A DNA stretch of 64,000 nucleotides, taken from the NCBI GenBank assembly GCA_947449005.1, contig CANFPP010000002.1, forward strand, positions 30,781-94,780. Direction: 5' to 3'. The DNA comes from Holosporales bacterium. Lineage in GTDB: Bacteria > Pseudomonadota > Alphaproteobacteria > Paracaedibacterales > CANFPP01. This document shows, piece by piece, positions 6,252 through 59,370 of this stretch; within the stretch, counting starts at the first letter, position 1; each line of letters starts with the position of its first letter. The position numbers and the translations under genes were made by a program. The notes beneath the pieces were generated by a model. It searched no databases. It had not been told where the DNA came from and was given only the letters and a program-made list of their open reading frames with translations.

Positions 6252-7193
6252 ATGAAAGATCATATGATGCGAGTGACAAAACGCGTTAAGGAAATACTTA
6301 GCTTTTATGAAAGTGACAGTCCTGGAATTAAAAATAATCTAGCTCGCATTTTGATGCAGGGGCGTCTTGCAGGAACGGGTCATATGGTTATCCTTCCCGT
6401 TGATCAGGGATTTGAGCACGGACCACGGACATTCGCCACAAATCCTGCTGCCTTTGATCCCCATTATCATTATCGTATGGCTGTGGAAGCTGAACTATCT
6501 GCTTACGCTGCTCCGCTGGGATGGCTAGAGGCGGGGGCTGATACTTTTGCAGGTGAGATTCCAACAATTTTAAAGATGAACAGTAGCAATAGCTTGTTAT
6601 GTAAAACAAATGCTCCTGATCAGGCTATAACAGCATCGATTTCGGATGCTTTGCGCTTAGGTTGCGCTGCGATTGGGTTTACAATTTATCCTGGATCAGA
6701 TTCTTCTCTTGAGATGTTTGAAGAAATTCGTGATTTAGCGCTTGAAGCGAAAGCTTGCGGATTGGCGGTCGTTATTTGGTCATATGCGCGCGGTAACATG
6801 TCAAAAGAAGGGGAAACGGCTATTGATGTTGTATCCTATGGCGCACATATTGCAGCTTTACTAGGGGCCCATATCATTAAGGTAAAGCTACCAAGCGCTC
6901 ACTTAGAATTTCCAGAAGCTAAAAAGCAATACCTCGATAATAATATTAAAATTGATACGATGGCTGATCGGGTTCGTCATGTGGTTCAATCTTGTTTTAA
7001 CGGTAGAAGAATGGTTGTATTTTCTGGTGGTGAAGCAAAAGATGTGAATAGTGTTCTCGATGATGCACGTGCAATTTGTGCGGGTGGTGGTAATGGTTCG
7101 ATCATTGGTCGTAATAGTTTTCAACGTCCTTATGATGAGGGGATGAAGTTATTAACGCAGCTAACGAGTGTTTATCTCGATCATAAAATTTAA
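6252..7193 (+). CDS. Class I fructose-bisphosphate aldolase (DhnA/FbaB type, DeoC/LacD aldolase fold)
   Basis: 313 aa. MVILPVDQGFEHGP, the IIKVKLP lysine region and GGNGSIIGRNSFQRP are typical of archaeal/DhnA-type class I aldolases. Confidence 0.7.
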   Translation: MKDHMMRVTKRVKEILSFYESDSPGIKNNLARILMQGRLAGTGHMVILPVDQGFEHGPRTFATNPAAFDPHYHYRMAVEAELSAYAAPLGWLEAGADTFAGEIPTILKMNSSNSLLCKTNAPDQAITASISDALRLGCAAIGFTIYPGSDSSLEMFEEIRDLALEAKACGLAVVIWSYARGNMSKEGETAIDVVSYGAHIAALLGAHIIKVKLPSAHLEFPEAKKQYLDNNIKIDTMADRVRHVVQSCFNGRRMVVFSGGEAKDVNSVLDDARAICAGGGNGSIIGRNSFQRPYDEGMKLLTQLTSVYLDHKI

Positions 7194-15644: not shown

Positions 15645-15718
15645 ATTAGTTAAGACTCTATTAACTCCATGATGACTTATAATAGAAAGAATTTCAAAGA
15701 TGTTTTAACTGAGAGGTT

Positions 15719-17431: not shown

Positions 17432-20233
17432 ATGGATTATCGTAATACTGTGTTTCTCCCGAAAACAGATTTTCCCATGAAGGCAAATCTATCGAATCGT
17501 GAACCAGAGTTAATTAATTATTGGCAAGAAATCGATATTTACAAAAAGCTTCGCGAACAATCAAAGGGCCAGAAAAAGTTTATCCTTCATTTTGGTCCTC
17601 CCTATGCAAATGGCCATATTCATATTGGCCACGCCTTAACCGAAGTTTTGAAAGACGTTATCAATAAAACGTTTCAGATGCTCGGGTACGATGCGCCCAT
17701 GGTTCCAGGTTGGGATTGTCATGGTCTGCCAATTGAGTGGAAGATTGAGGAAGAATACCGAGCAAAGGGTATAGATAAAGACACAGTCGATGTTTTAGAG
17801 TTCCGCCAAGAATGCCGTGCTTCCGCTGCGAAATGGCTTGGTGTCCAAAGGGAGGAATTCCAGCGCCTTGGTATCATTGCCGATTGGAAAAACCCTTATT
17901 CAACGATGGATTTTTTAACAGAAGCGCGCATTGTTGAGCAACTAGGCATTTTCATTTTAAATGGCAGTCTTTATCGTGGTTTAAAGCCAGTTCTGTGGTC
18001 AGTTGTTGAAAAAACAGCACTCGCAGAGGCAGAAGTTGAATATCACGATCACACCAGTGATTCAGTCTATGTTGCTTTTCCAATTCAATCGACTGCAATC
18101 AGACAATTAAATGGTGCATTTGCTGTTATCTGGACAACAACGCCTTGGACATTGCCTGGTAACAGAGCAATTGCTTATGGTCCAGAATTTGAATATGTCG
18201 TTATTGATGTAAAATCGATTGGTAAAAAACTTTTAATTGCCAAAGATTTATTGGCAGATTTTCAAGCTCTGGTTGGCTTTGAAGATTGTCAAGTTCTCGC
18301 AACCTTAAAAGGTAGTGAATTAAAAGGAACAGTTTGTTCTCATCCTTTTAAAGGCAGTGGATATGACTTCGATGTTCCATTATTGCCAGGCGAACACGTA
18401 ACAATCGAAACAGGTACAGGGCTTGTGCACACAGCACCTGGTCATGGATTGGAAGACTTTGCCGTTGGCAAAGAGTTTGGCATAGAAGTGCCAGAAACTG
18501 TTCAAGGCGATGGCTTGTACTATCCTCATGTGCCTCTCTTTGCTGGCCAACATATCTTTAAAGCTAATGCATCTGTGATGAAAGAATTATCAGACAGGGG
18601 TTGTTTGCTGCATTCGAAAAAGATTTTACATAGTTACCCGCATTCATGGCGCTCAAAAGCTCCTTTGATTTACCGCACAACTGCTCAATGGTTTGTGAGT
18701 ATGGAAAAGAATGACCTACGGAAAAAGGCATTGTCAGCTATTGAACAGGTTGAGTGGTTCCCTACTCAGGGGCAAAATCGAATTCGCTCTATGATTCAAG
18801 ATCGTCCAGACTGGTGCTTGTCCAGACAACGAGCGTGGGGAACACCTATAACAATTTTTGTTCACAAAGAAACGGGTGAGGTTCTGCGGGACCCTGCAGT
18901 TCATGCCAGAATTGTCGATGCAATTGCTGCAGAGGGAGCGGATGCTTGGTACACAAGTGATGTTACGCGATTTTTAGGCAACGATTATAAATCAGAACAT
19001 TATGAAAAAGTAACAGACACCTTGGATGTGTGGTTTGACAGTGGTTGCTCGCATAGTTTTGTTCTAAAGCATAGAGAAGAGCTTTCTTGGCCAGCAGATG
19101 TTTATTTAGAAGGCTCAGATCAACATCGCGGTTGGTTCCAATCTTCTCTCTTGGAATCTTGTGGAACAACAGGGACTGCTCCTTACCGTCAGGTTATAAC
19201 GCATGGTTTTGTGTTAGACCAAAAGGGCTACAAGATGTCAAAATCACAAGGCAACGTTGTCGCGCCAGAAAAAGTCATTAATACTTTGGGGGCTGATTTA
19301 TTACGTCTCTGGATTGCTTCTTCAGATTATTCAGAAGATATGCGTATTGGGCCAGATATTCTAAAACATCAAGAAGATGTTTATCGTCGCTTACGCAATA
19401 CGCTCCGATATTTATTGGGTGCTCTTGCTGGGTTTTCTGAGGCTGAGAAAGTTGATTACAGTGATATGCCATCTCTTGAACGTTGGGTGTTGCATCGCTT
19501 GTCTGAATTGGGCGAACTTCATAAAACTTGCGTAGAGGAATATGATTTTCCTGCGTTTTATAATGCAATCCATACATTCTGTGCCGTTGATCTTTCGGCA
19601 TTTTATTTTGATATTCGCAAAGACTGTTTGTATTGCGATGAAGAAACTTCCCTGAAGAGACGATCTGCTCGAACAGTTATGAATCAAGTCTTTGTTTGCT
19701 TGACGCACTGGCTAGCGCCTGTTCTAAGCTTTACGGCTGAAGAAGCGTGGCTAAGTTATAATGGTGGAAAAGAACGCGGAAGTATTCATCTGCAAAAATT
19801 TCCTGAGTTAGCTCCAAATTGGCACGATGTTAAGTTGGACAAACATTGGGACATTATTAGAGATGTTCGCAAAGTTATTACCGGCGCTTTGGAAATTGAA
19901 CGTTCCGCAAAAACCATTGGATCCAGTTTGCAAGCTGAGGTTGCTGTTTACGTGACAATAGAGATTGCTGCAGAGTTTAAGCATGTGGATCTTGCTGAAT
20001 TGTCAATAACATCAGATGCGACTCTGGTTATTGCTCAACCACCTGCGGGTGCTTTTATGCTTGATGAGGTAAAAGATGTTGGAGTAATTGTGAATCCTGC
20101 CAAAGGTGAAAAATGTGAGCGTTGTTGGAAAGTTTCACCAGATGTCGGTGCTGTAGATTCTGCAAAAGTTCATTCGAACCTTTGTACTCGTTGTCATGAT
20201 GTCGTGTCGAAACAATGCGTAGCAGCAGCATGA
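17432..20233 (+). CDS. ileS: Isoleucine--tRNA ligase
   Basis: 933 aa. HIGH motif (PYANGHIHIGHAL), KMSKS motif (YKMSKSQGN) and a C-terminal Zn-finger (CERCW...CTRC). Confidence 0.97.
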   Translation: MDYRNTVFLPKTDFPMKANLSNREPELINYWQEIDIYKKLREQSKGQKKFILHFGPPYANGHIHIGHALTEVLKDVINKTFQMLGYDAPMVPGWDCHGLPIEWKIEEEYRAKGIDKDTVDVLEFRQECRASAAKWLGVQREEFQRLGIIADWKNPYSTMDFLTEARIVEQLGIFILNGSLYRGLKPVLWSVVEKTALAEAEVEYHDHTSDSVYVAFPIQSTAIRQLNGAFAVIWTTTPWTLPGNRAIAYGPEFEYVVIDVKSIGKKLLIAKDLLADFQALVGFEDCQVLATLKGSELKGTVCSHPFKGSGYDFDVPLLPGEHVTIETGTGLVHTAPGHGLEDFAVGKEFGIEVPETVQGDGLYYPHVPLFAGQHIFKANASVMKELSDRGCLLHSKKILHSYPHSWRSKAPLIYRTTAQWFVSMEKNDLRKKALSAIEQVEWFPTQGQNRIRSMIQDRPDWCLSRQRAWGTPITIFVHKETGEVLRDPAVHARIVDAIAAEGADAWYTSDVTRFLGNDYKSEHYEKVTDTLDVWFDSGCSHSFVLKHREELSWPADVYLEGSDQHRGWFQSSLLESCGTTGTAPYRQVITHGFVLDQKGYKMSKSQGNVVAPEKVINTLGADLLRLWIASSDYSEDMRIGPDILKHQEDVYRRLRNTLRYLLGALAGFSEAEKVDYSDMPSLERWVLHRLSELGELHKTCVEEYDFPAFYNAIHTFCAVDLSAFYFDIRKDCLYCDEETSLKRRSARTVMNQVFVCLTHWLAPVLSFTAEEAWLSYNGGKERGSIHLQKFPELAPNWHDVKLDKHWDIIRDVRKVITGALEIERSAKTIGSSLQAEVAVYVTIEIAAEFKHVDLAELSITSDATLVIAQPPAGAFMLDEVKDVGVIVNPAKGEKCERCWKVSPDVGAVDSAKVHSNLCTRCHDVVSKQCVAAA

Positions 20234-25458: not shown

Positions 25459-25506
25459 CTGGATGGCCACACACCTACGGTGCTCGCCATGACGCAGTGG
25501 TGAGAA
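25459..25506 (+). repeat. R-unit (REP-like repeat of about 45 nt), solo copy
   Basis: ctggatggccacacacctacggtgctcgccatgacgcagtggtgagaa matches the copies at 41666, 41770(rc), 57841(rc) and 57924. Confidence 0.8.
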
Positions 25507-25818
25507 CGAACTTTCGCTACATTAGATTAGATCTCTCGCAAAACCTCAGGAATTCTGACTTCAACAGTGCACAGTATAGCAACTACTTCAGCTCACGAGT
25601 TCTTGTTACCTAAACTGATGGTAGTGCGAGATTATCATTTAGTTCTTTCCGTGTTGCTTAAAAATCTATCTGCTTAAGAAAGATTCTAATAACGACATTC
25701 GCGAATCGCGAATCAAGAATAATTAATCTTCATCTTTAACTATAGGATGGGTTGATTTATCCGCGCTAATTTGAGATTATCTGCTCAAAATATTGTCCCG
25801 TCATTCTGAGAGGGAAAC

Positions 25819-26979
25819 ATGAAAAATTATCTCAAGCTTTTTTTTGGTGCATTGTACTTAGTTTGCGTTGGACTATTTTTTGTGGGTAAAAGTTACTCTG
25901 CAAATCAAGATGTGGATGTTTTATTTTGCTGCTATGACTTAGGCGATTCGCATCCAATGCAGCGGGTTATGAAAGATCTTGAGGAGCAAGGAATTTCTTA
26001 CAAAGTTTTAGCTTTAGGAAAAGCACTTGAAGTTTTTACCTCAAACACTCTCAATCTAGATTTGCTAGATGTCAAATCTGACAGAGAACAAGCCTTAGAT
26101 ACCACTCATCTTAAATTGATAGAAGATGCTGTTAGACCCAAAATTGTTATTACAGGAATGGCCTCAGTAGTACAAGCTCAAGTTCTAAATTTATTTAAGG
26201 AAAAGCAAGCTTACGCGATTGCGTTTTATGATAATTTTGATACCGTTGAAACGGCTGAATATGCTCAGGCTTTCTTAAGGAGAGTTGAGCAAATAGATGA
26301 ATATTTTATTCCCTCAGAGGCAACGCTACCAGGATTTCAGAAACTAGAGAAAACAAAGCATTCAAAATTAAGCATTTTTGGTCAGCCGATTCTAGAAAAT
26401 TGGGACGATGTATTTTCTAAAACGAATAAAGAAGAATTGCGTCAAAAGTTGGATGTGGGATCGCAAGACCAAGTGCTTTTGTTTGCAGGAGATTGCAACA
26501 ATACATATCAACAGTATTTCAGAATCTTTGTAAAAGGAGTTGGGGCTTTTAATAATCCTAACCTAAAAGTCTTCGTAACGTATCACCCCAAAACAGATGG
26601 ATCATTTGAAAGATCGGTAGTTGAGGAAGAAAAAATCCCTAACATCAGAATCATTGATACCAAAGAATTTTCGACAACACAAATTGCAACCATCGCCAAT
26701 GCTTTTGCATGTCATAAATCTTCCATGGGGATTCAGGCTCTTTATGTTGGGTTGCCGGTTGTTTACGTTGTGGAAAGTGGTGAAGTTCGCAACTTTGCTA
26801 TCCAACAAGGTATCGCGATACAAGTTGAAAGTGCGGCTGATTTAAGTTCCGCATTAGACAGAATACTTAAAACGGCAAATCGTAATCAGTCTCCAGTACA
26901 GCAGAGTCTTGGTATTCCTAAAAACGCAACAGCAAGAATGGTTACGCATATAAAGGAACTTCTAGCAAAAAAAGTGTAG
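25819..26979 (+). CDS. Membrane-anchored or secreted protein with possible GT-B glycosyltransferase-like architecture. Function unknown.
   Basis: N-terminal hydrophobic segment. The C-terminal half (VLLFAGD..., KVFVTYHPK, ACHKSSMGIQALYVGLPVVYV) resembles the nucleotide-sugar-binding half of MurG/MGDG-synthase-type enzymes. This is a weak call. Confidence 0.35.
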   Translation: MKNYLKLFFGALYLVCVGLFFVGKSYSANQDVDVLFCCYDLGDSHPMQRVMKDLEEQGISYKVLALGKALEVFTSNTLNLDLLDVKSDREQALDTTHLKLIEDAVRPKIVITGMASVVQAQVLNLFKEKQAYAIAFYDNFDTVETAEYAQAFLRRVEQIDEYFIPSEATLPGFQKLEKTKHSKLSIFGQPILENWDDVFSKTNKEELRQKLDVGSQDQVLLFAGDCNNTYQQYFRIFVKGVGAFNNPNLKVFVTYHPKTDGSFERSVVEEEKIPNIRIIDTKEFSTTQIATIANAFACHKSSMGIQALYVGLPVVYVVESGEVRNFAIQQGIAIQVESAADLSSALDRILKTANRNQSPVQQSLGIPKNATARMVTHIKELLAKKV

Positions 26980-28489: not shown

Positions 28490-29382
28490 CAGTAAAGCCA
28501 AATGGAATTAAGAACAAACGGAATCATTTATTCTTGCTATTAGCATTAGGTGTTATTGCCCTGGCTTCCGCTTATTCAGTTTATTATTATTTCATTGGCT
28601 CTCGGCATATCTCAACGGACAATGCTTATGTTGGTGCAGAGATTGCTCAAATAACATCACTAACGGGCGGTACCATAAAAACAATTCATTACAATGATAC
28701 GGACACCGTTAAGGTTGATGATATTTTAGTGGTTATTGATGATGCTGATACAAAGCTTGCCTTGGCCCGTGCTGAGGCAGAGCTTGCAAAAGCTAATGTT
28801 GAGCTTGATCGCACAAAACTAGATTATGAACGTCGTAAAGCTCTCTCAAAATCAGGTTCTGTTTCAGGGGAAGAAGTTAGTAATTCCGAAAATGCTTATA
28901 AAGCTGCGCAAGCGGTCTTTAATGTTGCGCATGTTGTAAAAGAACAGGCAACCCTTGATCTTAATCGTACAGTTATTCGCTCTCCTGTTGAGGGTGTTGT
29001 TGCAAAGCGACAAGTTCAATTGGGCCAGCGTGTTCAACAAGGCACTCCCTTAATGTTTGTGGTCCCAATGTTGGCTCTTCATGTCGATGCAAACTTTAAA
29101 GAAGTACAACTTAGAAAAGTAAAAATTGGACAGCAAGTTGAATTGATCTCTGATTTTTATGGAAATTCAGTTGTGTATCACGGAAAAATTTCTGGAATTG
29201 CAGGGGGGACAGGATCTGCCTTTGCCTTGATTCCAGCTCAAAATGCGACAGGAAATTGGATTAAAGTTGTGCAACGGCTCCCGGTTCGAATACAGCTTGA
29301 TCCGGAAGAGTTAAAGAAACATCCCTTGAAAGTCGGTCTTTCAATGCAAGCCGATATTGATATCTCAGATGATAAAAAATGA
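28486..29382 (+). CDS. HlyD/EmrA-family periplasmic adaptor (short form)
   Basis: N-terminal TM segment, STDNAYV, a coiled coil, IRSPVEGVVAKRQVQLGQ and NATGNWIKVVQRLPVRI. Confidence 0.85.
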   Translation: MTVKPNGIKNKRNHLFLLLALGVIALASAYSVYYYFIGSRHISTDNAYVGAEIAQITSLTGGTIKTIHYNDTDTVKVDDILVVIDDADTKLALARAEAELAKANVELDRTKLDYERRKALSKSGSVSGEEVSNSENAYKAAQAVFNVAHVVKEQATLDLNRTVIRSPVEGVVAKRQVQLGQRVQQGTPLMFVVPMLALHVDANFKEVQLRKVKIGQQVELISDFYGNSVVYHGKISGIAGGTGSAFALIPAQNATGNWIKVVQRLPVRIQLDPEELKKHPLKVGLSMQADIDISDDKK

Positions 29383-30908
29383 GCAAAGGCTTAAACCCAC
29401 CCTCGCTCCAAGGAAATGACTTAATTATTGCAGCAATGCTTTTAGCTGTTGCTAACTTTATTGTTGTTCTAGATATCACTATTGCTAATGTCTCTGTTTC
29501 CCATATCGCGGGCGGTCTTGCTATTTCTCCGACTGAAGGAACGTATGTAATTACGTCCTATGCAGTGGCGGAGGCTATCACAGTTCCTTTGACAGGCTGG
29601 CTTGCCAAGCGATTTGGAACTGTTCGAGTCTTTACAACGTGTATAATGTTATTTGGATTGTTTTCAGGCCTATGTGGGTTTGCTAACAGTATTGGCATGC
29701 TTGTTCTTGGACGTGTTTGCCAGGGTTTAGTTGGTGGTCCATTGATTCCTTTGTCGCAAACGTTATTAATGCAAATTTTCCCAAAAGAAAAACAAGGGGC
29801 TGCTATTGGTTTGTGGAGTATGACGACACTTGTGGCACCAATTCTAGGGCCTATTGTTGGTGGATATATTTGCGATAATTGGGGGTGGCAATTCATATTT
29901 TATATTAACATCCCCATAGCAGTCATATGCAGCATTGCGGCCTTGAGGCTCCTACGCCCTTATGAAACATCTACATTTAAAGAAAAAATAGATATTGTTG
30001 GTCTAATGCTGCTTATTTTATGTGTTTCATCTTTGCAGATAATGTTAGACGAAGGTAAAAACTATGATTGGTTTGAATCCAATCTCGTTTGTTGTCTTTG
30101 TATTGTTTCTATCATTTCCTTTATATCTTTCCTCATTTGGGAATTGACCTATGATAAGCCAATTGTGAACCTGCGTGTGTTTAGGCATCGTGGATATTCT
30201 ATGAGTGTTCTGACCATCAGCCTTTCTTTTGGTGCTTTCTTTGGTTCGGTTGTTTTAACGCCTCTTTGGCTCCAACTCTACATGGGATATACGGCGACAT
30301 GGTCTGGGCTTGCGACAGCTGCAACCGGTATTTTAGCTGTTGTTGCCGCACCTTTTGCTGCTAAATTTTCGCAGAAATATGATCCGAGAATGCTCGTTTT
30401 CTTGGGGGTTTTGTGGCTCGGTATTTTGACATTTGAACGTTCATTTAGCTCAACAGATAATACGTTTTTTCAGATTTTCCTGCCTATGCTGATTCAGGGG
30501 ATCGGCATGCCTTTCTTCTTTATTCCCCTAACAGGTCTAGCACTTGCAAGCGTTAACCCTGATGAAACAGCTTCTGCCGCAGGTTTGATGAGCTTTCTTC
30601 GAACATCATCTGGCGCCTTTGCAACTTCTATTGTTACAACATCATGGGAAAATCAAACCACTGTTTTCAGAGGTGATCTAGTCGAGCGTGCTGTATCACC
30701 TGAACACGTTAGTGCGATGTTGGGAGGAGGCGAAGTTTCAACCCAAATTTCCACATACATTATTGACCAAACCATACAGTCTCAGGCCATAATGCTCGCA
30801 ACCAATCATATTTTTCAAATTGTAGCCTTCACCTTCACATTTGCTGCTTGCGCTATTTGGCTTGCCCCTAAACCAACTCACAAGGCGAATACTGCTGGCG
30901 CACATTAA
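29379..30908 (+). CDS. DHA2-family MFS efflux permease (EmrB/QacA-like, 14 TMS)
   Basis: LDITIANVSVSHIAG, GWLAKRFG and GRVCQGLVGGPL. It is translationally coupled to the adaptor gene. Confidence 0.9.
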   Translation: MSKGLNPPSLQGNDLIIAAMLLAVANFIVVLDITIANVSVSHIAGGLAISPTEGTYVITSYAVAEAITVPLTGWLAKRFGTVRVFTTCIMLFGLFSGLCGFANSIGMLVLGRVCQGLVGGPLIPLSQTLLMQIFPKEKQGAAIGLWSMTTLVAPILGPIVGGYICDNWGWQFIFYINIPIAVICSIAALRLLRPYETSTFKEKIDIVGLMLLILCVSSLQIMLDEGKNYDWFESNLVCCLCIVSIISFISFLIWELTYDKPIVNLRVFRHRGYSMSVLTISLSFGAFFGSVVLTPLWLQLYMGYTATWSGLATAATGILAVVAAPFAAKFSQKYDPRMLVFLGVLWLGILTFERSFSSTDNTFFQIFLPMLIQGIGMPFFFIPLTGLALASVNPDETASAAGLMSFLRTSSGAFATSIVTTSWENQTTVFRGDLVERAVSPEHVSAMLGGGEVSTQISTYIIDQTIQSQAIMLATNHIFQIVAFTFTFAACAIWLAPKPTHKANTAGAH

Positions 30909-31040
30909 AATCACAATTTGGGATTAAAGCGATAAAAAAGCCAGAAGTTTTGCCAACTATGTTTTTTGAGATTTCTCACACATTGCTACCTTCGCTCTCT
31001 CAGGTCATTTCAGCTCTCATAGGTGCCATTCTTGCTAGTG

Positions 31041-31069
31041 GCATCCCCGGGCTCGACCCGGGGATCTCC
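31041..31069 (+). repeat. E-hairpin element
   Basis: gcATCCCCGGGctcgaCCCGGGGATctcc is a 9-bp stem with the same architecture as the copies at 56893, 57325 and 58016(rc). Confidence 0.7.
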
Positions 31070-31146
31070 AAAATAATCAAAAACCTCTTTCTAAACCTGA
31101 GCTAAGATACCTTTTGTTAAAGGCATCTGTTTTTTAGAAAAACTGA

Positions 31147-32139
31147 TTAAGAGTAAATAACTCTCATAATGTTTGCAAAACGCCTGATCTCGTTTAGAAA
31201 CTCTTCTTCAGTTTGAAGTTTGCTCATCGTGACATCATTAATCGTTAAGCTGATTCCACTGCTCATACTTCCCCAGCTTACTCCTCTGTCACTTCTTGAT
31301 ATCATGCCTTTATCTGTTATAACTTGCATAGGTCGACAAGTGGTGGACTGAGTAGAAGCTTGTCTTGCAACAAGAGGTTGCCTTAGTGAATACAATTTAG
31401 GATCTGGCGTACAATTTTCTAAAACAAGCTGACGGAATTCTGCAGCTGTTGTTTCTGTTGCTGGCTCTTTAAAGCCAAAATATCCATTAGGAATGCGATA
31501 GCCCAAATGTGAAAATGTTGTTTTTGCAACGCGATCAAAACTTAATGTTAAAATAGAAGAAAATTCCTTAACTTCTTGTTGCCACTGCTCTATTGAGAAA
31601 TGCTTAAGATTTTTAGAAAATAAAGCCGTGCTAATATATTCATTGTTGAAATGCTGCTGCGTGATTTCTCTCAAATCCTCAAATGATCCATAACGTAAGA
31701 TATGTGTTGCTGTTATGATTTTTTGTACTTCAGTAAGATGTGTTTTGGTCACTTGATCTTCTGTTTTAATCCCTGCTGCTCTTCGTATATTAATAATAGG
31801 TAAATAGCTTTGTGGGTTGCCCACTTCATGCAAAATTGTTGCAAAAATTAAGGTGGCCACCATAACTTCTCTCTCTGCCGGTGTCGCTAGAGTTTTGCGA
31901 AAACCATTTTTCCCGCCTGTTGCCATAAACCATAAAATAGCTGATTTTTTATGCTCTAGTCGTTGAGGTGTATCTATTTCCAATTTGGTTGACAGACTCA
32001 TAACATGTTCGACAACACTTCTCACTTTTCCACTTTGTGCTGATGTTTGGTACTCTTGCCAAAATTCATCGGGAGAACCCGCTATGGCAGAGCTAAACTG
32101 CACTATAATTAGTAATAAACTGATACGTAAAAATAACAT
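31147..32139 (-). CDS. Secreted protein of unknown function, paralog family member 2
   Basis: Signal-like N-terminus MLFLRISLLLIIVQFSSAIAG. It is collinear with members 1 and 3 over about 250 aa (KKSAILWFMATGGKNGF, LIFATILHEV, THLTEVQKIITATHIL, FNNEY, FGFKEPATETTAAEFRQLVLENC). Confidence 0.65.
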   Translation of the reverse strand: MLFLRISLLLIIVQFSSAIAGSPDEFWQEYQTSAQSGKVRSVVEHVMSLSTKLEIDTPQRLEHKKSAILWFMATGGKNGFRKTLATPAEREVMVATLIFATILHEVGNPQSYLPIINIRRAAGIKTEDQVTKTHLTEVQKIITATHILRYGSFEDLREITQQHFNNEYISTALFSKNLKHFSIEQWQQEVKEFSSILTLSFDRVAKTTFSHLGYRIPNGYFGFKEPATETTAAEFRQLVLENCTPDPKLYSLRQPLVARQASTQSTTCRPMQVITDKGMISRSDRGVSWGSMSSGISLTINDVTMSKLQTEEEFLNEIRRFANIMRVIYS

Positions 32140-41601: not shown

Positions 41602-41665
41602 GATTTTAGAAACTTACTCTTACTCATAAATGAAAACGCCTATTTTTAAGTCGATCTTAATTCTT

Positions 41666-41807
41666 CTTGATGATCACGCCCCTGTGGTGTTCGCCATGAC
41701 GGCAGTGAGGATTTGCAATTTATCGAAATATTCCAAGCTGTATGGATTGCTTCTCTACGCACATTCATCGCCGTCATGGCGAGCACCGTTGGTGCGTGGC
41801 CATCCAG
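41666..41807. repeat. Inverted pair of R-units (BIME/MITE-like, 142 bp) inside the murD-ftsW spacer
   Basis: cttgatgatcacgcccctgtggtgttcgccatgacggcagtgagga (41666..41711) faces gccgtcatggcgagcaccgttggtgcgtggccatccag (41770..41807) across a 58-bp spacer. Confidence 0.8.
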
Positions 41808-41926
41808 TTAAACAATATCAGAAAAATGCTGAATATTTACGATATTTTAAAAATATTTTCACATTTCAATTTTTATATTAATGTAAACAGTCGAAAAATA
41901 TCAAGGGACTCGTTATCACAATGTTT

Positions 41927-54360: not shown

Positions 54361-55269
54361 CAACGTATCCTCATCATAAAATTAGGTGCCTTAGGGGACA
54401 TCGTGCAGGCTGTGAGCGCGTTTTCGGCAATCCGAGAACACCATCCAAAGGCTAATATCACGATATTAACCAGGCCCTTATATCAAGATCTCATAGCGAA
54501 GATGGGGTTCTTTGATGAGGTCTGGATAGATGAACGTCCGAAGCTTACTCAAATTAATAAGTGGTTGAAGCAAAGATCTCGATTGCAGTCTGGCAATTTT
54601 GATAGGGTTTATGATCTGCAAGGCGTAACACGAACCAATCTGTATTTCTGGAGCTTAACGAAGCGTCCTGAATGGGTTGGAATGGCACGTGGATGCTCTC
54701 ATCCTTATCCGCAAAAAGATCCGCATCGTCAACATCCTCAAGAACGATTTAAAACGCAGCTTGTTCTGGTTGGTATTCAATCTCTGTCCTCAATTGATCT
54801 CTCATTTTTAGCATCTGAGATTGATCAATTTGCCGTGCATTCACCTTATGCTTTGCTTATCCCAGGTGCTTCAAATGCGCATGGGGGGAAAAAACGATGG
54901 CCTCTTCTAAAATATGCTGAAATTGCTTGCTACCTAAAATCAAAAAATATCTTGCCGGTAATTATAGGTGGTGCCAATGAAGATAACTCTTTAATAGGCC
55001 AGCTTTGTGCGGAGGCTCTCGATCTAACTGGAAAAACCAGTTTCATCGATATAATTTCTTTGGCAAAAAATGCATTATTTTCAATTGGAAATGACACAGG
55101 ACCAATGCTACTTTGCCATGCAGCTGGTTGTAAAACACTCACTTTATTCTCAAGTGTAAACCCGCCATTAATTGGGGGAGCGAGAGGCGTTGGTGCAGAG
55201 CAGTTATTTTGTGATGACCTTAATCAATTAAGTGTTCAAACTGTTATTAATGCTATTGATTTCTTCTAA
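54358..55269 (+). CDS. Glycosyltransferase family 9 (LPS heptosyltransferase-like)
   Basis: MQRILIIKLGALGDIVQA..., a typical GT9 N-terminus, and GNDTGPMLLCHAAGCKTLTLF. Confidence 0.8.
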   Translation: MQRILIIKLGALGDIVQAVSAFSAIREHHPKANITILTRPLYQDLIAKMGFFDEVWIDERPKLTQINKWLKQRSRLQSGNFDRVYDLQGVTRTNLYFWSLTKRPEWVGMARGCSHPYPQKDPHRQHPQERFKTQLVLVGIQSLSSIDLSFLASEIDQFAVHSPYALLIPGASNAHGGKKRWPLLKYAEIACYLKSKNILPVIIGGANEDNSLIGQLCAEALDLTGKTSFIDIISLAKNALFSIGNDTGPMLLCHAAGCKTLTLFSSVNPPLIGGARGVGAEQLFCDDLNQLSVQTVINAIDFF

Positions 55270-56091
55270 AGTCAGGCCTGTTGCATTTATAATAATGGTG
55301 TTATCAATTTTCTGAGCGAGAAGATTTCTAGCAATCTCTATTTTTTCTTCCATCTTTCCTTTTTCTATTCCTTTTTGATTTGTAACTTCAAGAGTGTTCT
55401 CAACATCTACAATCGCTAGTGCTGCATCTTCATAAGCAAGCATTTCTGATTCACTCCAAGTATAGCGCTCTAATGTATGGTAAGCTTCTTCAATAGGGGT
55501 GCCTTGAAAAATTCTCGGAATTTCTCTGTCTTTATCCGCATGCCTTAGGAAGTAAATCCATTTTTCTTCAATAGTTTCGAGTTCATGTTCTTGTTTTATG
55601 AATTTAGGGAGCTCAATAAACGTAAAAGAAAAATCTTTTAAATCATGTTCATAACTCGATGTATCCAAAATCAAATGGTCTGATTTATATGACTCTTTGT
55701 CTGGAAAGAGGACATGGTCAGCAATCGCTAAGAAAATAACCTGGTTCAGCTTTGGGTATTCTTCTCCACGTTCTAGCTGTCCTGTGTAGGTTTTTGCGGC
55801 ATAATATTGGGCCCGTTTGTCAAATCCTGCGACATGAGAAATCTGCATCTCTACAATATATCGAATATTTCTGGCATCTTTACATAAGATGTCGACAATG
55901 CTTTGTTTTGCACCAAAAGTTTTGGGAGCCTGGATAGGATTAAGAAAATCAACCTGCTCGATAATTTTATCGCCAGTGAGATTCAAAACTCCATTAAGAA
56001 AATCTATTAATAAATCCTTGTGATCCTCGTTACCAAAGATTTTTTTAAAGGCAACGTCATTTTTGGGGTTTAAGTATTTACTTTGCGTCAT
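55228..56091 (-). CDS. Rpn-family recombination-promoting nuclease / PD-(D/E)XK putative transposase (YhgA-like)
   Basis: The family signature KYLNPKNDVAFKKIFGNEDHKDLLIDFLNGVL, the nuclease core IVDILCKD...YIVEMQ, and a helical C-terminal tail. Its 3' end overlaps the convergent GT9 3' end by 42 nt. Confidence 0.75.
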   Translation of the reverse strand: MTQSKYLNPKNDVAFKKIFGNEDHKDLLIDFLNGVLNLTGDKIIEQVDFLNPIQAPKTFGAKQSIVDILCKDARNIRYIVEMQISHVAGFDKRAQYYAAKTYTGQLERGEEYPKLNQVIFLAIADHVLFPDKESYKSDHLILDTSSYEHDLKDFSFTFIELPKFIKQEHELETIEEKWIYFLRHADKDREIPRIFQGTPIEEAYHTLERYTWSESEMLAYEDAALAIVDVENTLEVTNQKGIEKGKMEEKIEIARNLLAQKIDNTIIINATGLTLEEINSINNSLNT

Positions 56092-56231: not shown

Positions 56232-56819
56232 ATGCTTACAAGATCAGTTTTTTTATTAGGTACTGCGCTTTTATGCGTTTCATTGAGCCAAGCGAAAGTG
56301 TCGCTTGTAGAGGATCATGATCCTGGAATCATTCGAAGAGCAATGTCGGCTGTAACAGGATTTGTCATGGGGATGGAATTGTTTCCCAAGTATTCAGATG
56401 TGCAAGACGTAGGATCAAAGACATTAAAGGCAAAATCTACGAAAGAGCTTTTCGAGAAGGCGTATTTAAGTGAGGGGCACCCCGCAAAAGACTTTGCTCC
56501 AAAAACACAAGTTCAAGAAGGTGTGGATCTTAACTCTGAATCGCTTTTAGAAGGTTTATATCCTTCTTTTAAGCAGGTCGACAAAGAAGCTCATCATACT
56601 CAAGAGATTGAAGCTGAGATGAAAGCACATTCAACAACTTCATCAACAAATTTCAAGCAAACAGAAAAAGCTCAGGCAGATCTTGATAGAGAATCTAACA
56701 TCTATAATTCTGTCGCTGTTCAAACATCAGAAGCTATTAGAAGTGAAGTTTTACCTCCTCTTCAATCAGTGTCAGCAGCAGATCAGTACAGATACAGTGC
56801 CATTATTTCAGTCGGCTGA
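56232..56819 (+). CDS. Secreted hypothetical protein
   Basis: Strong RBS (aaggagaagaaatATG) and signal peptide MLTRSVFLLGTALLCVSLSQA. No recognisable domain. Confidence 0.55.
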   Translation: MLTRSVFLLGTALLCVSLSQAKVSLVEDHDPGIIRRAMSAVTGFVMGMELFPKYSDVQDVGSKTLKAKSTKELFEKAYLSEGHPAKDFAPKTQVQEGVDLNSESLLEGLYPSFKQVDKEAHHTQEIEAEMKAHSTTSSTNFKQTEKAQADLDRESNIYNSVAVQTSEAIRSEVLPPLQSVSAADQYRYSAIISVG

Positions 56820-56892
56820 TAGTGTTTGTTTTCTACAGTAATTGCTTCTTCTTGATGCGATTGCCTATTTAGATCCGCTCTCCCCATCCCAC

Positions 56893-56925
56893 TGTCATCC
56901 CCGGGTTAGCCCCGGGGATCTCATG
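56893..56925 (+). repeat. E-hairpin element
   Basis: tgtcATCCCCGGGttagcCCCGGGGATctcatg. Confidence 0.75.
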
Positions 56926-57227
56926 TGACCGCTCCTCCCAAAACATAATTACGGCCACTATTTTTCTTTGACTTTTTTTTGTTTTTTGATTTATTCTTTA
57001 CCTGTAATCGACAAGAATACGAGGTTTTTTAAAGAAAAATAATAACTCAAAAATCCATTAAACTCTCAACATCACATGACCGGAATATGATAAGAAGTTT
57101 TCTGAATTCAAAGTTATTAGCCGGATTTTCTTAGAAAATAGAGTCTCCATTAATGATGGGCTCTTCTCCTACTCGCCTCGTATTAGTGTTGGTCTACCTT
57201 TAAGTAAGTAAAATTACGTGAAGCGGT

Positions 57228-57719
57228 GTCTGCTGCGTTTAAGGGTAGAGGAGTACAGATGGTCTTTTGAAGGATTCTGCCCGCTCATTGTCATCCTGGA
57301 AAGTTGGTGAGTTCCAAGCTTTTATGTCATCCTAGTGCTTGACACTAGGATCTCATGCAGCGGCTTATCACACTTACGCAGGATCTCATGAAACAGAGTC
57401 ACATAAAAAAATCGTATGATGGGGAAGAGTTAGAGGTGAAGCAGAGCGGCCTTGATTGCTGAGGTAATGACCAGGCTTCATCCCTGGGTGTACGGGGTCA
57501 ACGTTACGCCGTCGGTTTTGGCAAAATAACCGATCCGCCAATCTGGGTAAGTGATTGGGCTGCATCTTAGCTAAGTAGATGCGCCGTGCGAGCTGGCTTA
57601 ATGCTCGAACAGGCCTTAAAAAGTCGAAGCCTATGTGTACTTGGTGACAGGCACAGCCTTGGGTGAGCTAAATCATCCCAACCCACTTGAACCTCAAAAA
57701 TTCAAGAAACGCAGCAGAC
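57228..57719. other. 492-bp segment closed by perfect 13-bp inverted repeats. It contains a nested E-element and a GC-richer core of about 320 bp. Nature unknown (decayed mobile element, pseudogene or structured RNA).
   Basis: gtctgctgcgttt (57228..57240) and aaacgcagcagac (57707..57719). There is no intact ORF of 60 aa or more. One plus-strand frame reads through with only three stops. Confidence 0.4.
57289..57390 (+). repeat. Composite E-element: a long form with a short E-hairpin apparently nested inside
   Basis: The long form starts tgtcatcctggaaagttggtgagttccaagc and ends gcaggatctcatg (57381..57390). The internal short copy tgtcATCCTAGTGcttgaCACTAGGATctcatg is at 57325..57357. Confidence 0.6.
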
Positions 57720-57840
57720 TCTTTCCCATGGACTTCCACTTTAAAAGATCCGGGGGATCTTAAAAGTATAAAAGTTCATCGGAAAGAATAAAGAAAAGTA
57801 ATTTAAAGTAAAATATAATAAAAATAAATAAAAACAAGCC

Positions 57841-57969
57841 GCCGTCATGTCGAGTACCAAAGGTGCGTGGCCATCCAGAAAAATAAAAATGAATGAAATG
57901 AAACATCCTATACAAGCGTTTAGCTGGATGGCCACACACCTGTGGTGCTCGCCATGACGGCAGTAAGGA
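57841..57969. repeat. Pair of R-units in diverging orientation
   Basis: gccgtcatgtcgagtaccaaaggtgcgtggccatccag (57841..57878, rc) and ctggatggccacacacctgtggtgctcgccatgacggcagtaagga (57924..57969). Confidence 0.8.
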
Positions 57970-58015
57970 TGAAATTTATATTATAAATACTTTTTTTGTA
58001 CTTAAAGTCTGTTTT

Positions 58016-58045
58016 GAGATCCTGGTGTCAAGCACCAGGATGACA
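58016..58045 (-). repeat. E-hairpin element (reverse orientation)
   Basis: gagATCCTGGTGtcaagCACCAGGATgaca. Its reverse complement is tgtcATCCTGGTGcttgaCACCAGGATctc. Confidence 0.75.
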
Positions 58046-58079
58046 GGGGAGGAATAAGATTGTAATCTCATTCTCCAGT

Positions 58080-58147
58080 TGTCATCCTAGACAGCAGGTG
58101 AGTTCCAAGTTTGCTTGGATAACGAGCCACTGATGCAGGATCTCATG
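58080..58147 (+). repeat. E-element, long form
   Basis: tgtcatcctagacagcaggtgagttccaagtttgcttggataacgagccactgatgcaggatctcatg has the same termini as the short form and an internal ccaag/cttgg hairpin. Confidence 0.65.
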
Positions 58148-58173
58148 CCGACAAAAACAAGACACAATCTTTC

Positions 58174-59370
58174 TTAATATCTCATCAAACTCTTCAGCTT
58201 AGAAAAATGTGGAGCAAACTTTGCGTTACCCTTAAGAGCCGCCATAAAATCCTGCATGTTATTGGCTCTAAGACTCAAATCTTCAATTGCAAGTTGATCT
58301 TCGTCATTCAGTATCCAATGCAAAGAAACAGCTGCTCTGTCTCCATCAATAACAACCGGATAAAAGCTTTTGGTTGCATGATACTCAATACCACTGAGTA
58401 TCATGGTATTGTCTGGCGACGAAAGACCATCATGCATATGGCTTTGACCAGCATGAACTTCATTTGATGTGCCGTCCATTGTTACACTTGAATCATCTGA
58501 GAAGATCCCAGCTTGTACTGTTACACTCTGCCCATTCTTTTTAACCCAGGTGTGTGGTCTTAATAATAACTGAGCGCTTGTCCATGGGTTATCCTGCGTT
58601 ATAAAAAATATATCTGTGTTTTGAGGGAGGACATTATGAGATCTTAAAGTATCTTTTATGTTGTTAGGTAAGTTCATATAGGCTGAAACTGGAAGTTTTA
58701 CACTAAAAATGTTTCTAAGCATTCCGAAGTTTCTTCTCTCATCACCACCAGGTTGATAGGGATGAATAATCGGAGCTTCCGATAATCCAAGATATTCATA
58801 ATGAGAGGAAGGATTGACATTAAGATATCTTCTCATTGCTATCGCATTCGTTGCTTTATTGGAATCTTCATTAAAACTATCAAGCACTGGATTTTGTTTA
58901 ATAAAAGGTTGTTTTAAAAACCCCTCCAAAGAAAGAATTTTTCCGCTAAAGGCAGCAATGTGATCTTTTGAAACATGAAGAACACTTCGTGTTTTAGTGA
59001 AACATCTATCCAGCGTTTCTCTAAATATTTCACCCAAATTTCGTCCTGGAATTTTGGAGGCTTCTTGAAGAAACGTAATAATTGTGTACGCATTTAGGAT
59101 GTGTTCTTGTTGCTGAAGTGTGACAATATTGCCTGGTTTATAGAGTCTATCCCACGTATCACTGTGGTTACTTTTAGCAATTTTATCTAAAGATTGAACA
59201 ATAACTTCGCGCTCTTCTGAAGTTGTAATACGACTAGAAAATCCATGTTTTGATCCGTTTATAATTTCAATGCTGTCAATAAAATTACTTGTGCGTAAAT
59301 CTCTAATCGCTGCATTGTCTGCGTGCGACGCACCTATAGAAGCCAACAAAACAACAAACCAGAACTTCAT
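58174..59370 (-). CDS. Secreted hypothetical protein, possible distant member of the paralog family
   Basis: Signal peptide MKFWFVVLLASIGASHA and RBS aagga. Local similarity to family blocks: GSKHGFSSRITTSEEREVIVQSL vs GGKNGFRKTLATPAEREVMVATL, and QEHILNAYTIITFLQ vs KTHLTEVQKIITATH. Confidence 0.55.
   Translation of the reverse strand: MKFWFVVLLASIGASHADNAAIRDLRTSNFIDSIEIINGSKHGFSSRITTSEEREVIVQSLDKIAKSNHSDTWDRLYKPGNIVTLQQQEHILNAYTIITFLQEASKIPGRNLGEIFRETLDRCFTKTRSVLHVSKDHIAAFSGKILSLEGFLKQPFIKQNPVLDSFNEDSNKATNAIAMRRYLNVNPSSHYEYLGLSEAPIIHPYQPGGDERRNFGMLRNIFSVKLPVSAYMNLPNNIKDTLRSHNVLPQNTDIFFITQDNPWTSAQLLLRPHTWVKKNGQSVTVQAGIFSDDSSVTMDGTSNEVHAGQSHMHDGLSSPDNTMILSGIEYHATKSFYPVVIDGDRAAVSLHWILNDEDQLAIEDLSLRANNMQDFMAALKGNAKFAPHFSKLKSLMRY

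Follow-up and report, generated by a model that had tools for sequence, protein, structure and literature searches.

Tagged hairpin repeats clustered between convergent genes of an uncultured alphaproteobacterium and their probable kinship with CGTC-tagged REPs

Tagged hairpins in a 1.35-kb intergenic gap

The window analyzed here is a 64,000-nt stretch of contig CANFPP010000002.1 from an uncultured Paracaedibacteraceae-like alphaproteobacterium, which we searched together with ~13 kb of additional flank (77 kb of the genome) for members of a family of small tagged hairpins that we refer to as E-type. Five of the six E-type units found lie inside a single 1.35-kb gap, 56820-58173, bounded by the convergent open reading frames (ORFs) 56232-56819(+) and 58174-59370(-). 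The short unit is 33 nt long, has the general form TGTC-ATCC-N5-loop5-N5'-GGAT-CTCATG, and occurs four times with three different inner stems; all nine stem pairs are Watson-Crick in each of these copies. Two long forms, of 68 and 102 nt, end in the same termini as the short units, and one of them stands head-to-head with a short unit across a 34-nt spacer (58013-58045(-) and 58080-58147(+)). The only unit outside the gap, at 31039-31071, again lies between convergent genes, 29379-30908(+) and 31147-32139(-), and shares its entire 9-bp stem with the 56893 copy, flanked here by TGGC and CTCCAA. Across the six units, GTC precedes the stem in five (the 31039 copy being the exception) and GGAT-C closes it in all six. 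Loops of the short copies are CTTGA (two), CTCGA (one), and TTAGC (one), and the 3' tails are CTCATG, CTCAAA, or CTCCAA. A second family of tagged hairpins, F-type, contributes five further units to the same 77 kb (Table 1).

Table 1 Repeat units and related features in the window. z, folding z score; CM, covariance model.
Feature	Position	Strand	Evidence
Short E-type, TGTC ATCCCCGGG TTAGC CCCGGGGAT CTCATG, 9-bp stem	56893-56925	+	DNA fold -12.1 kcal/mol, z -4.1; CM 46.5 bits
Short E-type inside long form 1, TGTC ATCCTAGTG CTTGA CACTAGGAT CTCATG	57325-57357	+	z -3.8; CM 49.4 bits
Short E-type, TGTC ATCCTGGTG CTTGA CACCAGGAT CTCAAA	58013-58045	-	z -3.7; CM 45.3 bits
Solitary E-type hairpin, TGGC ATCCCCGGG CTCGA CCCGGGGAT CTCCAA, degenerate tag and tail	31039-31071	+	z -4.5; CM 40.5 bits
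Long form 1: head TGTCATCCTGG, 25 nt, entire short unit (57325-57357), 21 nt, tail CAGGATCTCATG	57289-57390	+	z -2.7
Long form 2: head TGTCATCCTAG, 45 nt including CCAAG-TTTG-CTTGG, tail CAGGATCTCATG	58080-58147	+	weak fold, z -0.5
Partly self-complementary 34-nt spacer of head-to-head pair	58046-58079	none	between 58013-58045(-) and 58080-58147(+)
Minimal palindrome AAGATCC-GGG-GGATCTT, doubtful member	57745-57761	none	without GTC tag; not among CM matches at E<=10
F-type tail-to-tail pair, units 57843-57878(+) and 57924-57959(-)	57841-57961	both	-37 kcal/mol, z -8.2
F-type units in murD-ftsW spacer	41666-41701 (degenerate), 41772-41807	-, +	325-nt spacer; genes overlap by 4 nt in relatives
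Solitary F-type unit	25459-25494	-	match to F-type form

The short units are far more frequent and more strongly folded than expected by chance, whereas the fold of long form 2 is no better than that of its shuffles. The pattern ATCC-N5-N(3-12)-N5-GGATCTC matched the window four times against 0.12 expected, a count reached in none of 100 shuffles; the left terminus TGTCATCC occurs five times (1.28 expected) and the right terminus GGATCTCATG exactly four times. Folded as DNA, the four short copies have energies of -8.6 to -12.6 kcal/mol, with z scores between -3.7 and -4.5. A covariance model run over all 64 kb with filters off returned exactly the four short copies (E 4e-14 to 4.5e-11), with the next candidates in the window at E>2. 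Four further assemblies of this strain carry an identical sequence, and in three of them the contig ends within the gap, which hints at repeats elsewhere in the genome. We therefore give practically no credence to the idea that the units are chance palindromes or assembly artefacts: their small copy number in the window is all that would favor it, against which stand the shuffle controls, the covariation described below, the agreement of independent assemblies, and the presence of the family in isolate genomes.

A preliminary description of this DNA had proposed the short-form hairpin family, and the four fully paired 33-nt units, recovered by a covariance-model scan of the 64-kb window, bear this out. 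Two of the copies needed correction: the one placed at 31041 has the described stem but not the TGTC tag and CTCATG tail (these are TGGC and CTCCAA), and the one placed at 58016 on the reverse strand has the stem but ends in CTCAAA. The palindrome at 57745-57761, listed there as a relative, exists, but its membership is doubtful, as only GATCC/GGATC is common to it and the family; it forms part of a different, longer A/T-flanked palindrome.

Covariation, distribution, and association with GIY-YIG genes

The inner stems found in the window, CCGGG, TAGTG, and TGGTG, are apart by four compensated pair changes. We assessed covariation in an alignment of 24 distinct 33-mers that were picked by their flanks only, with a few chance matches deliberately kept. 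Both sides had changed at all five inner pairs, the covariation score was 0.19 against 0.083 +/- 0.019 in shuffles (exceeded in 0 of 500) and was lower in all slid registers, and 82.9% of cells were paired in the true register compared with 19-50% in slid ones. Among 136 flank-selected elements, 124 (91%) had at least four of the five inner positions paired or G.A, while ~1.5% of random sequences reach at least four of five inner pairs when Watson-Crick pairs alone are counted. The earlier inference that compensatory inner-stem changes between conserved flanks reflect selection on the hairpin is thus supported. Its stronger wording, that the hairpin is selected rather than the primary sequence, stands for the hairpin, but structure is not all that is kept. 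Across phyla, sequence itself is fixed at the GTC tag, at the outer ATCC/GGAT pairs, at the C that follows the stem, and in many cases in the CTTGA loop, with GTC-ATCC and GGAT-C invariant in both element alignments. These conserved tag, outer-stem, loop, and post-stem positions are the signature of protein recognition.

We then scanned viral contigs (loci L005-L010) and one genome per species (loci L012-L129) with TGTCATCC-N(13-19 or 14-16)-GGATCTCATG, and matches were numerous. The genome scan with N14-16 recovered at least 118 stretches with E-type termini in many phyla, with hosts including Bacteroidales, Clostridia, Verrucomicrobia, phyla of the candidate phyla radiation (CPR), Micavibrio, other Alphaproteobacteria, Campylobacterales, Actinobacteria, Chloroflexi, and others; isolate genomes carry the family too. 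E-hairpins are therefore not lineage-specific. Among the listed matches the commonest core was TGTCATCC(T/C)GAGCG-loop-CGA(A/G)GGATCTCATG, with a tandem G.A mismatch, and fully paired cores like those of the window were TCGGG-CTTGA-CCCGA and TCCGG-CTTGA-CCGGA; the CTTGA loop recurred across phyla. The pan-bacterial G.A-mismatch variant often occurs in tail-to-tail pairs sharing CTCATGAG or in 48-bp tandem arrays (L123). Its translation yields peptides of the CHPERSEGS or MRSFAALRMT type, which are presumably common among the hypothetical proteins of metagenome-assembled genomes (MAGs). No relevant match appeared in Rfam at the gathering threshold or at E<=10 for the window gap and 18 element-rich loci, a full-text literature search for element DNA and peptide strings returned no relevant paper, and blastn of one element against plasmids and phages gave no match.

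Clustering the ORFs around elements in the genome-scan loci revealed no recurrent transposase in the 118 loci listed; a small GIY-YIG gene alone recurred. L068, L079, and L088 encode GIY-YIG-only ORFs of 96-107 aa (Pfam PF01541, E ~1e-17) situated 11-400 nt from elements, and L123 has a homologous ORF by hidden Markov model, without a nearby hairpin. In L088 (Campylobacterales), head-to-head pairs bracket the GIY-YIG gene and include a unit of the window type, TGTC ATCCTCGGG CTTGA CCCGAGGAT CTCATG. The 96-aa protein of this locus has 4365 homologues at E<=1e-10; most of the best-listed ones measure 94-97 aa and have 65-77% identity to it, and they come from several phyla where the source names the host. 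Three homologues chosen blind to context had tagged hairpins on both sides in all three cases, including TGTC ATCCTCGGG CTTGA CCCGGGGAT beside the gene in L147 and CGTC ATCCCGGA CTTGA TCCGGGAT in L145. Altogether, hairpins with the E-type core (ATCC-N5-CTTGA-N5'-GGAT) bracket GIY-YIG genes in two loci, L088 and L147/L148, and related tagged hairpins flank such genes in four more, L068, L079, L145, and L146.

This arrangement matches the Ssn system of Chenal et al. 2025 (PMC11893778), who renamed such repeats Ssn-related motifs (SRMs). Homologues of Ssn (cd10448) are widespread and flanked by related hairpins, typically in the order SRM-ssn-SRM, and symbionts such as Rickettsia and Wolbachia are overrepresented among the genomes rich in SRMs (PMC11893778). 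The SRM of Neisseria is NTS, CGTCATTCCCGCGMAVGCGGGAATCYRG, which includes dRS3; it is bound and cut by SsnA, a 94-aa GIY-YIG nuclease, as single-stranded DNA (ssDNA) only, neither as RNA nor as double-stranded DNA (PMC11893778). For binding, the C directly behind the palindrome is the main determinant; cleavage, which falls a few nucleotides upstream, depends most on the three upstream nucleotides (PMC11893778). Our GIY-YIG ORFs were scored with the Pfam GIY-YIG model. Hairpins with the E-type core appear to be bona fide Ssn-associated motifs in other genomes.

By this homology, the form under selection would be ssDNA and not RNA. An alternative, which we regard as quite unlikely, is that the hairpins act in RNA as terminators in 3' untranslated regions or as mRNA stabilizers, as proposed for the repetitive extragenic palindromes (REPs) of Escherichia coli. 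Perfect palindromes do fold as RNA too, both sites in the window lie between convergent genes, the 56893 copy starts 74 nt past the stop codon of ORF 56232-56819, and Di Nocera, De Gregorio & Rocco 2013 (PMC3733652) describe a preference of REPs tagged with CGTC for positions downstream of genes. Yet no hairpin is followed by a T-run (tails such as CTCATG) and a terminator scan of 56600-58400 returned 0 sites, so we rejected the intrinsic-terminator reading. Moreover, elements in a single gap face both ways, and the conservation across phyla of a polar, unpaired tag and of the post-stem C fits recognition by a protein. RNA is not a ligand of SsnA (PMC11893778), and Rfam gave no match. An RNA-level role could coexist with one in ssDNA. 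Sequence inspection also led us to reject a hammerhead, whose core G8 and A9 are absent, and a k-turn reading of the hairpin.

Long forms, mobility, and the second repeat family

The long forms agree over 34 nt on the 5' side (85%) and over 20 nt on the 3' side (90%). Beyond TTGTC and CATG the resemblance ends, so both are copies of a single discrete unit that has E-type termini. Their basal stem comprises only ATCCTG/CAGGAT, with one compensated pair further in (A-T to C-G). The shared termini were correctly recognized in the preliminary description, but the gagttccaag...cttgg module ascribed to both was not: 'cttgg', the partner of 'ccaag', is present in the second long form only. When the 33 nt at 57325-57357 were deleted, the remaining 69 nt of long form 1 became collinear with the 68 nt of long form 2 (53 of 71 identical), while a rival alignment of long form 2 with 57289-57357 gave 48 of 69 identical. 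The nested insertion suggested at this position is thus favored by alignment, although two copies cannot prove it, and a short unit nested inside long form 1 is plausible. No target duplication accompanies the embedded copy. A metagenome scan with GTCATCC-N8-10-GGTGAGTTCCAAG yielded, as interpretable matches, coding sequence for a KVIHAEGEFQ-type protein and no relative of the long forms.

A related arrangement recurs elsewhere. A head-only copy (TGTCATCC with a portion of the 5' arm) is followed after 3-25 nt by a full hairpin on the same strand in 20 of 274 full elements, against ~1 expected, with examples in L046, L047, L060, L073, L147, L149 (15348-15403), and the window (57289-57357). Such an arrangement may be what remains after a nick upstream of the tag has been repaired or copied; most cases have no matching orphan tail, so recombination or repair can produce similar mosaics. 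It is possible, if unlikely, that the window catches SRM transposition itself, with a 33-nt TGTC...CTCATG unit placed in the ssDNA apex of a longer element with the same termini and without target duplication. Were this true, the long forms would be SRM-bounded units able to carry ~45 nt of cargo, the head-only arrangement and the 48-nt insertion described next would fit, and the mobile unit of CGTC REPs would have its first sequence-level definition; Ssn, cutting just upstream of the tag, would then be the mobilizing enzyme, a new kind of ssDNA 'transposase'.

Relatives of the window provide filled and empty sites. The MurC protein of the window is 62-63% identical to that of Candidatus Paracaedibacteraceae, the nearest named relatives, and 69% identical to that of the nearest MAGs, L149 and L151 among them. 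L149 (GCA_947475175.1) has E-type units with a further stem, TCGGA/TCCGA, and one of them lies inside murD (7040-7095), where an in-frame 48-nt (16-aa) insertion, PLSSSNTSLSSSGLTRG, joins a head-only copy, across 10 nt, to a full E-type hairpin. In protein as well as DNA alignments, the murD of L151 and that of the window lack this insertion, which indicates that the E-type family is or was mobile. L147 and L148, whose contigs are otherwise 100% identical, differ by a 95-bp indel (L147 1285-1379) bounded by identical 27-nt SRM units next to ssn, a configuration that points to turnover by unequal recombination. The L147 locus also contains an E-type hairpin with a 24-nt insertion (TACCTAAAGGTATACATTTCAATA) in its CTTGA loop. 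L151 has a unit of the Neisseria NTS type, TGTC ATTCCCGCGGAGGCGGGAAT CTAG, at 15670-15699(+) and one of the NTSvar type, TGTC ATACTCGGA CTTGA TCCGAGTAT CCATGG, at 17963-17994(-), so several SRM types coexist in this lineage.

F-type is a second CGTC REP family, of the form CGTC ATGGCGAGCACC nnn GGTGYGTGGCCAT CCAG, and its classical CCAG tail fits the published CCA consensus. The F-type consensus, CGTC ATGGC GA GCACC nnn GGTGY GTG GCCAT CCAG, describes a two-tier hairpin with an internal loop. Two units form a 125-nt tail-to-tail inverted repeat at 57841-57961, in the same gap as the E-type cluster, from which spurious miRNA-like Rfam matches arose. Two others occupy the murD-ftsW spacer of the dcw operon, which is 325 nt in the window (41602-41926), whereas the two genes overlap by 4 nt in L149 (7703-7706) and L151 (7707-7710); this contrast amounts to a filled versus an empty site for F-type.

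That the hairpins are REPs, REPINs, or miniature inverted-repeat transposable elements moved by a Y1 HUH transposase (REP-associated tyrosine transposase, RAYT, or IS200-IS605 type) reading subterminal hairpins appears highly unlikely to us. The logic is the same, with an ssDNA hairpin, a 5' tetranucleotide tag, inverted doublets, and no target-site duplication at the embedded copy, and the family is or was mobile. However, the tag is TGTC or CGTC and not GTAG, no RAYT was found flanked by CGTC repeats (PMC3733652), the only recurrent gene beside the elements in the 118 loci listed is the GIY-YIG gene, and the window has no Y1 transposase. Nor are the elements the ends of an insertion sequence (IS).

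The repeats might instead be passive targets, serving as sites for IS110-family or phage recombinases and for unequal recombination with no dedicated nuclease. Neisseria dRS3 is a known phage recombinase target (PMC11893778), the L147/L148 indel lies between identical units, partial head-only copies are common, and an Rpn-family nuclease gene lies 800 bp off. No window copy has an IS or prophage inserted in it, though, and passive use leaves the cross-phylum conservation of tag and post-stem C and the GIY-YIG adjacency unexplained. As a full account we find this very improbable; as a secondary consequence it is compatible with recognition by an Ssn nuclease, the explanation developed below.

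Several further features were noted. The Rpn-family gene, 55228-56091(-), encodes a PD-(D/E)XK recombination-promoting nuclease/putative transposase (TIGR01784, E 2e-45) ~800 bp from the cluster; nothing was found to connect it with the repeats. Searches of Pfam, NCBIfam, and PADLOC gave no match for the two flanking ORFs, of 195 and 398 aa. Within the gap, the 13-nt arms of a perfect inverted repeat (57228-57240 / 57707-57719) lie on either side of a stretch of ~50% GC that, minus long form 1, is 390 nt long and has a multi-helix RNA fold (-132 kcal/mol, z -2.6). This GC-rich segment has no Rfam, Pfam, plasmid, or phage match, and two other assemblies of the strain break within it, at 57603 and 57665; it may be a structured RNA or a gene relic interrupted by an E-element. 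At 25799-25836(+), a half-SRM-like head, ccGTCATTCTGAGagggaaacATG, lies over the start codon of the gene at 25819, with a covariance-model E of only 5.

Relation to known repeat systems

The E-hairpins very probably belong to the superfamily of REPs tagged with CGTC or TGTC, which makes them members of a described pan-bacterial class and not a new one. As described by Di Nocera, De Gregorio & Rocco 2013 (PMC3733652), the tag of these REPs is often TGTC, with CCTC allowed, the stems have 8-9 bp with A-T and T-A in the first positions, the loops have 4-5 nt of few sequence types, and the 3' tail is short, unpaired, and mostly CCA. The same study places them mostly in Alphaproteobacteria, in high copy number genome-wide and without an associated transposase, at sites downstream of genes between unidirectional or convergent genes; head-to-head dimers predominate, and large clusters occur in Neisseria and Wolbachia. 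A 9-bp stem and a 5-nt loop characterize families CGTC-3 and -4. The latter is RPE-4, one of the Rickettsia palindromic elements (RPEs), and forms clusters in Wolbachia, and Neisseria dRS3 is part of the superfamily (PMC3733652). The E-hairpins share with these REPs the unpaired (C/T)GTC tag, the 9-bp stem starting A-T, T-A, the 5-nt CTTGA loop, head-to-head pairs, clusters, sites between convergent genes, an alphaproteobacterial host, the lack of an adjacent transposase, and, in a relative, an RPE-like in-frame gene insertion. Our label family-4-like follows the text and the supplementary peptides of that paper: the CGTC-4 intragenic peptides AIPRLDLGI (R. conorii) and WIPWSNHGMT are, by back-translation, compatible with ATCC...CTTGA...GGAT. 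The earlier suggestion to compare the elements with palindromic families of intracellular alphaproteobacteria was accordingly the right lead, as they match the CGTC-4/RPE-4 type.

We consider the units in the window to be probably best explained as family-4-like CGTC REPs, or SRMs, that are recognized as ssDNA hairpins by an Ssn nuclease. Relative to Neisseria NTS/dRS3, they have the same GTC-AT...AT-C frame, with conserved nucleotides exactly at the determinants of SsnA binding and cleavage (PMC11893778). Under this explanation, DNA that becomes single-stranded (during replication, as incoming DNA, or in repair) would let each unit fold into a hairpin. Its polarity would come from the GTC tag, unpaired on the 5' side, together with the C that immediately follows the stem. 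A single-domain GIY-YIG Ssn of ~95 aa would bind it and nick the ssDNA a few nucleotides upstream. Nicking would modulate ssDNA recombination and is probably tied to how the repeats spread and turn over; they would pile up as intergenic clusters of head-to-head pairs, tail-to-tail pairs, and partial copies. That this mechanism is at work in this organism we hold to be somewhat likelier than its contrary; binding and cleavage restricted to ssDNA, a cognate Ssn, and the biological role would all follow by analogy with the published system.

Several observations weigh against this explanation. No GIY-YIG gene was found in the 77 kb comprising the window and its flanks, nor in ~55 kb from three relatives, and copy number was counted within the 77 kb. 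The E-type tails CTCATG, CTCAAA, and CTCCAA have only their first C in common with the CCA consensus of PMC3733652. The published SRM search pattern, HGTCWYN(0-2)YYVSBRHN(0-5)WNVSBRGN(0-2)RNCYNB, hand-made from 29 genomes, has 0 exact matches in the window; the 57325 and 58045(rc) copies match once its last base (B, here A) is ignored, against 0.15 expected, and the 56893 and 31039 copies fail at W/R positions. Finally, N. meningitidis SsnA lost its activity when the stem sequence was exchanged and the hairpin kept (PMC11893778). Given the coexistence of three inner stems, recognition must be tolerant of changes in the inner stem, or else some copies are no substrates.

With this finding, an uncultured Paracaedibacteraceae-like alphaproteobacterium joins the hosts of SRM/CGTC REPs, and several inner-stem variants of one SRM type are seen to share one genome with a second CGTC family. 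Should one Ssn serve them all, it would read the tag, the outer 4 bp, and the post-stem C as well as pairing as such, a rule that could help in engineering the specificity of Ssn. How CGTC REPs spread without a transposase has natural test cases in the long forms, the embedded copy, and the L149 murD insertion. SRM-type repeats would also account for assembly breaks and, we presume, for the peptide ORFs of the CHPERSEGS/MRSFAALRMT type in MAG annotations.

The closest systems also differ from the E-hairpins. The long forms, of 68-69 nt with shared termini and a basal stem of only 5-6 bp, depart from CGTC REPs as described in PMC3733652, and the 9-bp E-type stem has a variable inner 5 bp, while that of Neisseria is ATTCCCGCG. 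RPE-4, -6, and -7 share an ATGAC (= GTCAT) motif (PMC3767692). The 16-aa in-frame insertion with an E-type hairpin in the MurD of L149 is the 'protein-coding palindrome' behavior known from RPEs; in contrast to these ~95-140-bp elements, no E-type copy lies inside a gene in the window. REPIN-RAYT systems are defined by a GTAG or GTGG tag 0-2 nt 5' of a hairpin and by a RAYT gene flanked by the repeats. There the tag is GTAG and the enzyme is of the HUH-Y1 type, whereas the tag here is TGTC, the enzyme of SRMs is a GIY-YIG nuclease, and RAYT is absent. What the two have in common is their organization: short tagged ssDNA hairpins, inverted doublets, intergenic clusters resembling bacterial interspersed mosaic elements (BIMEs), and one domesticated enzyme per family.

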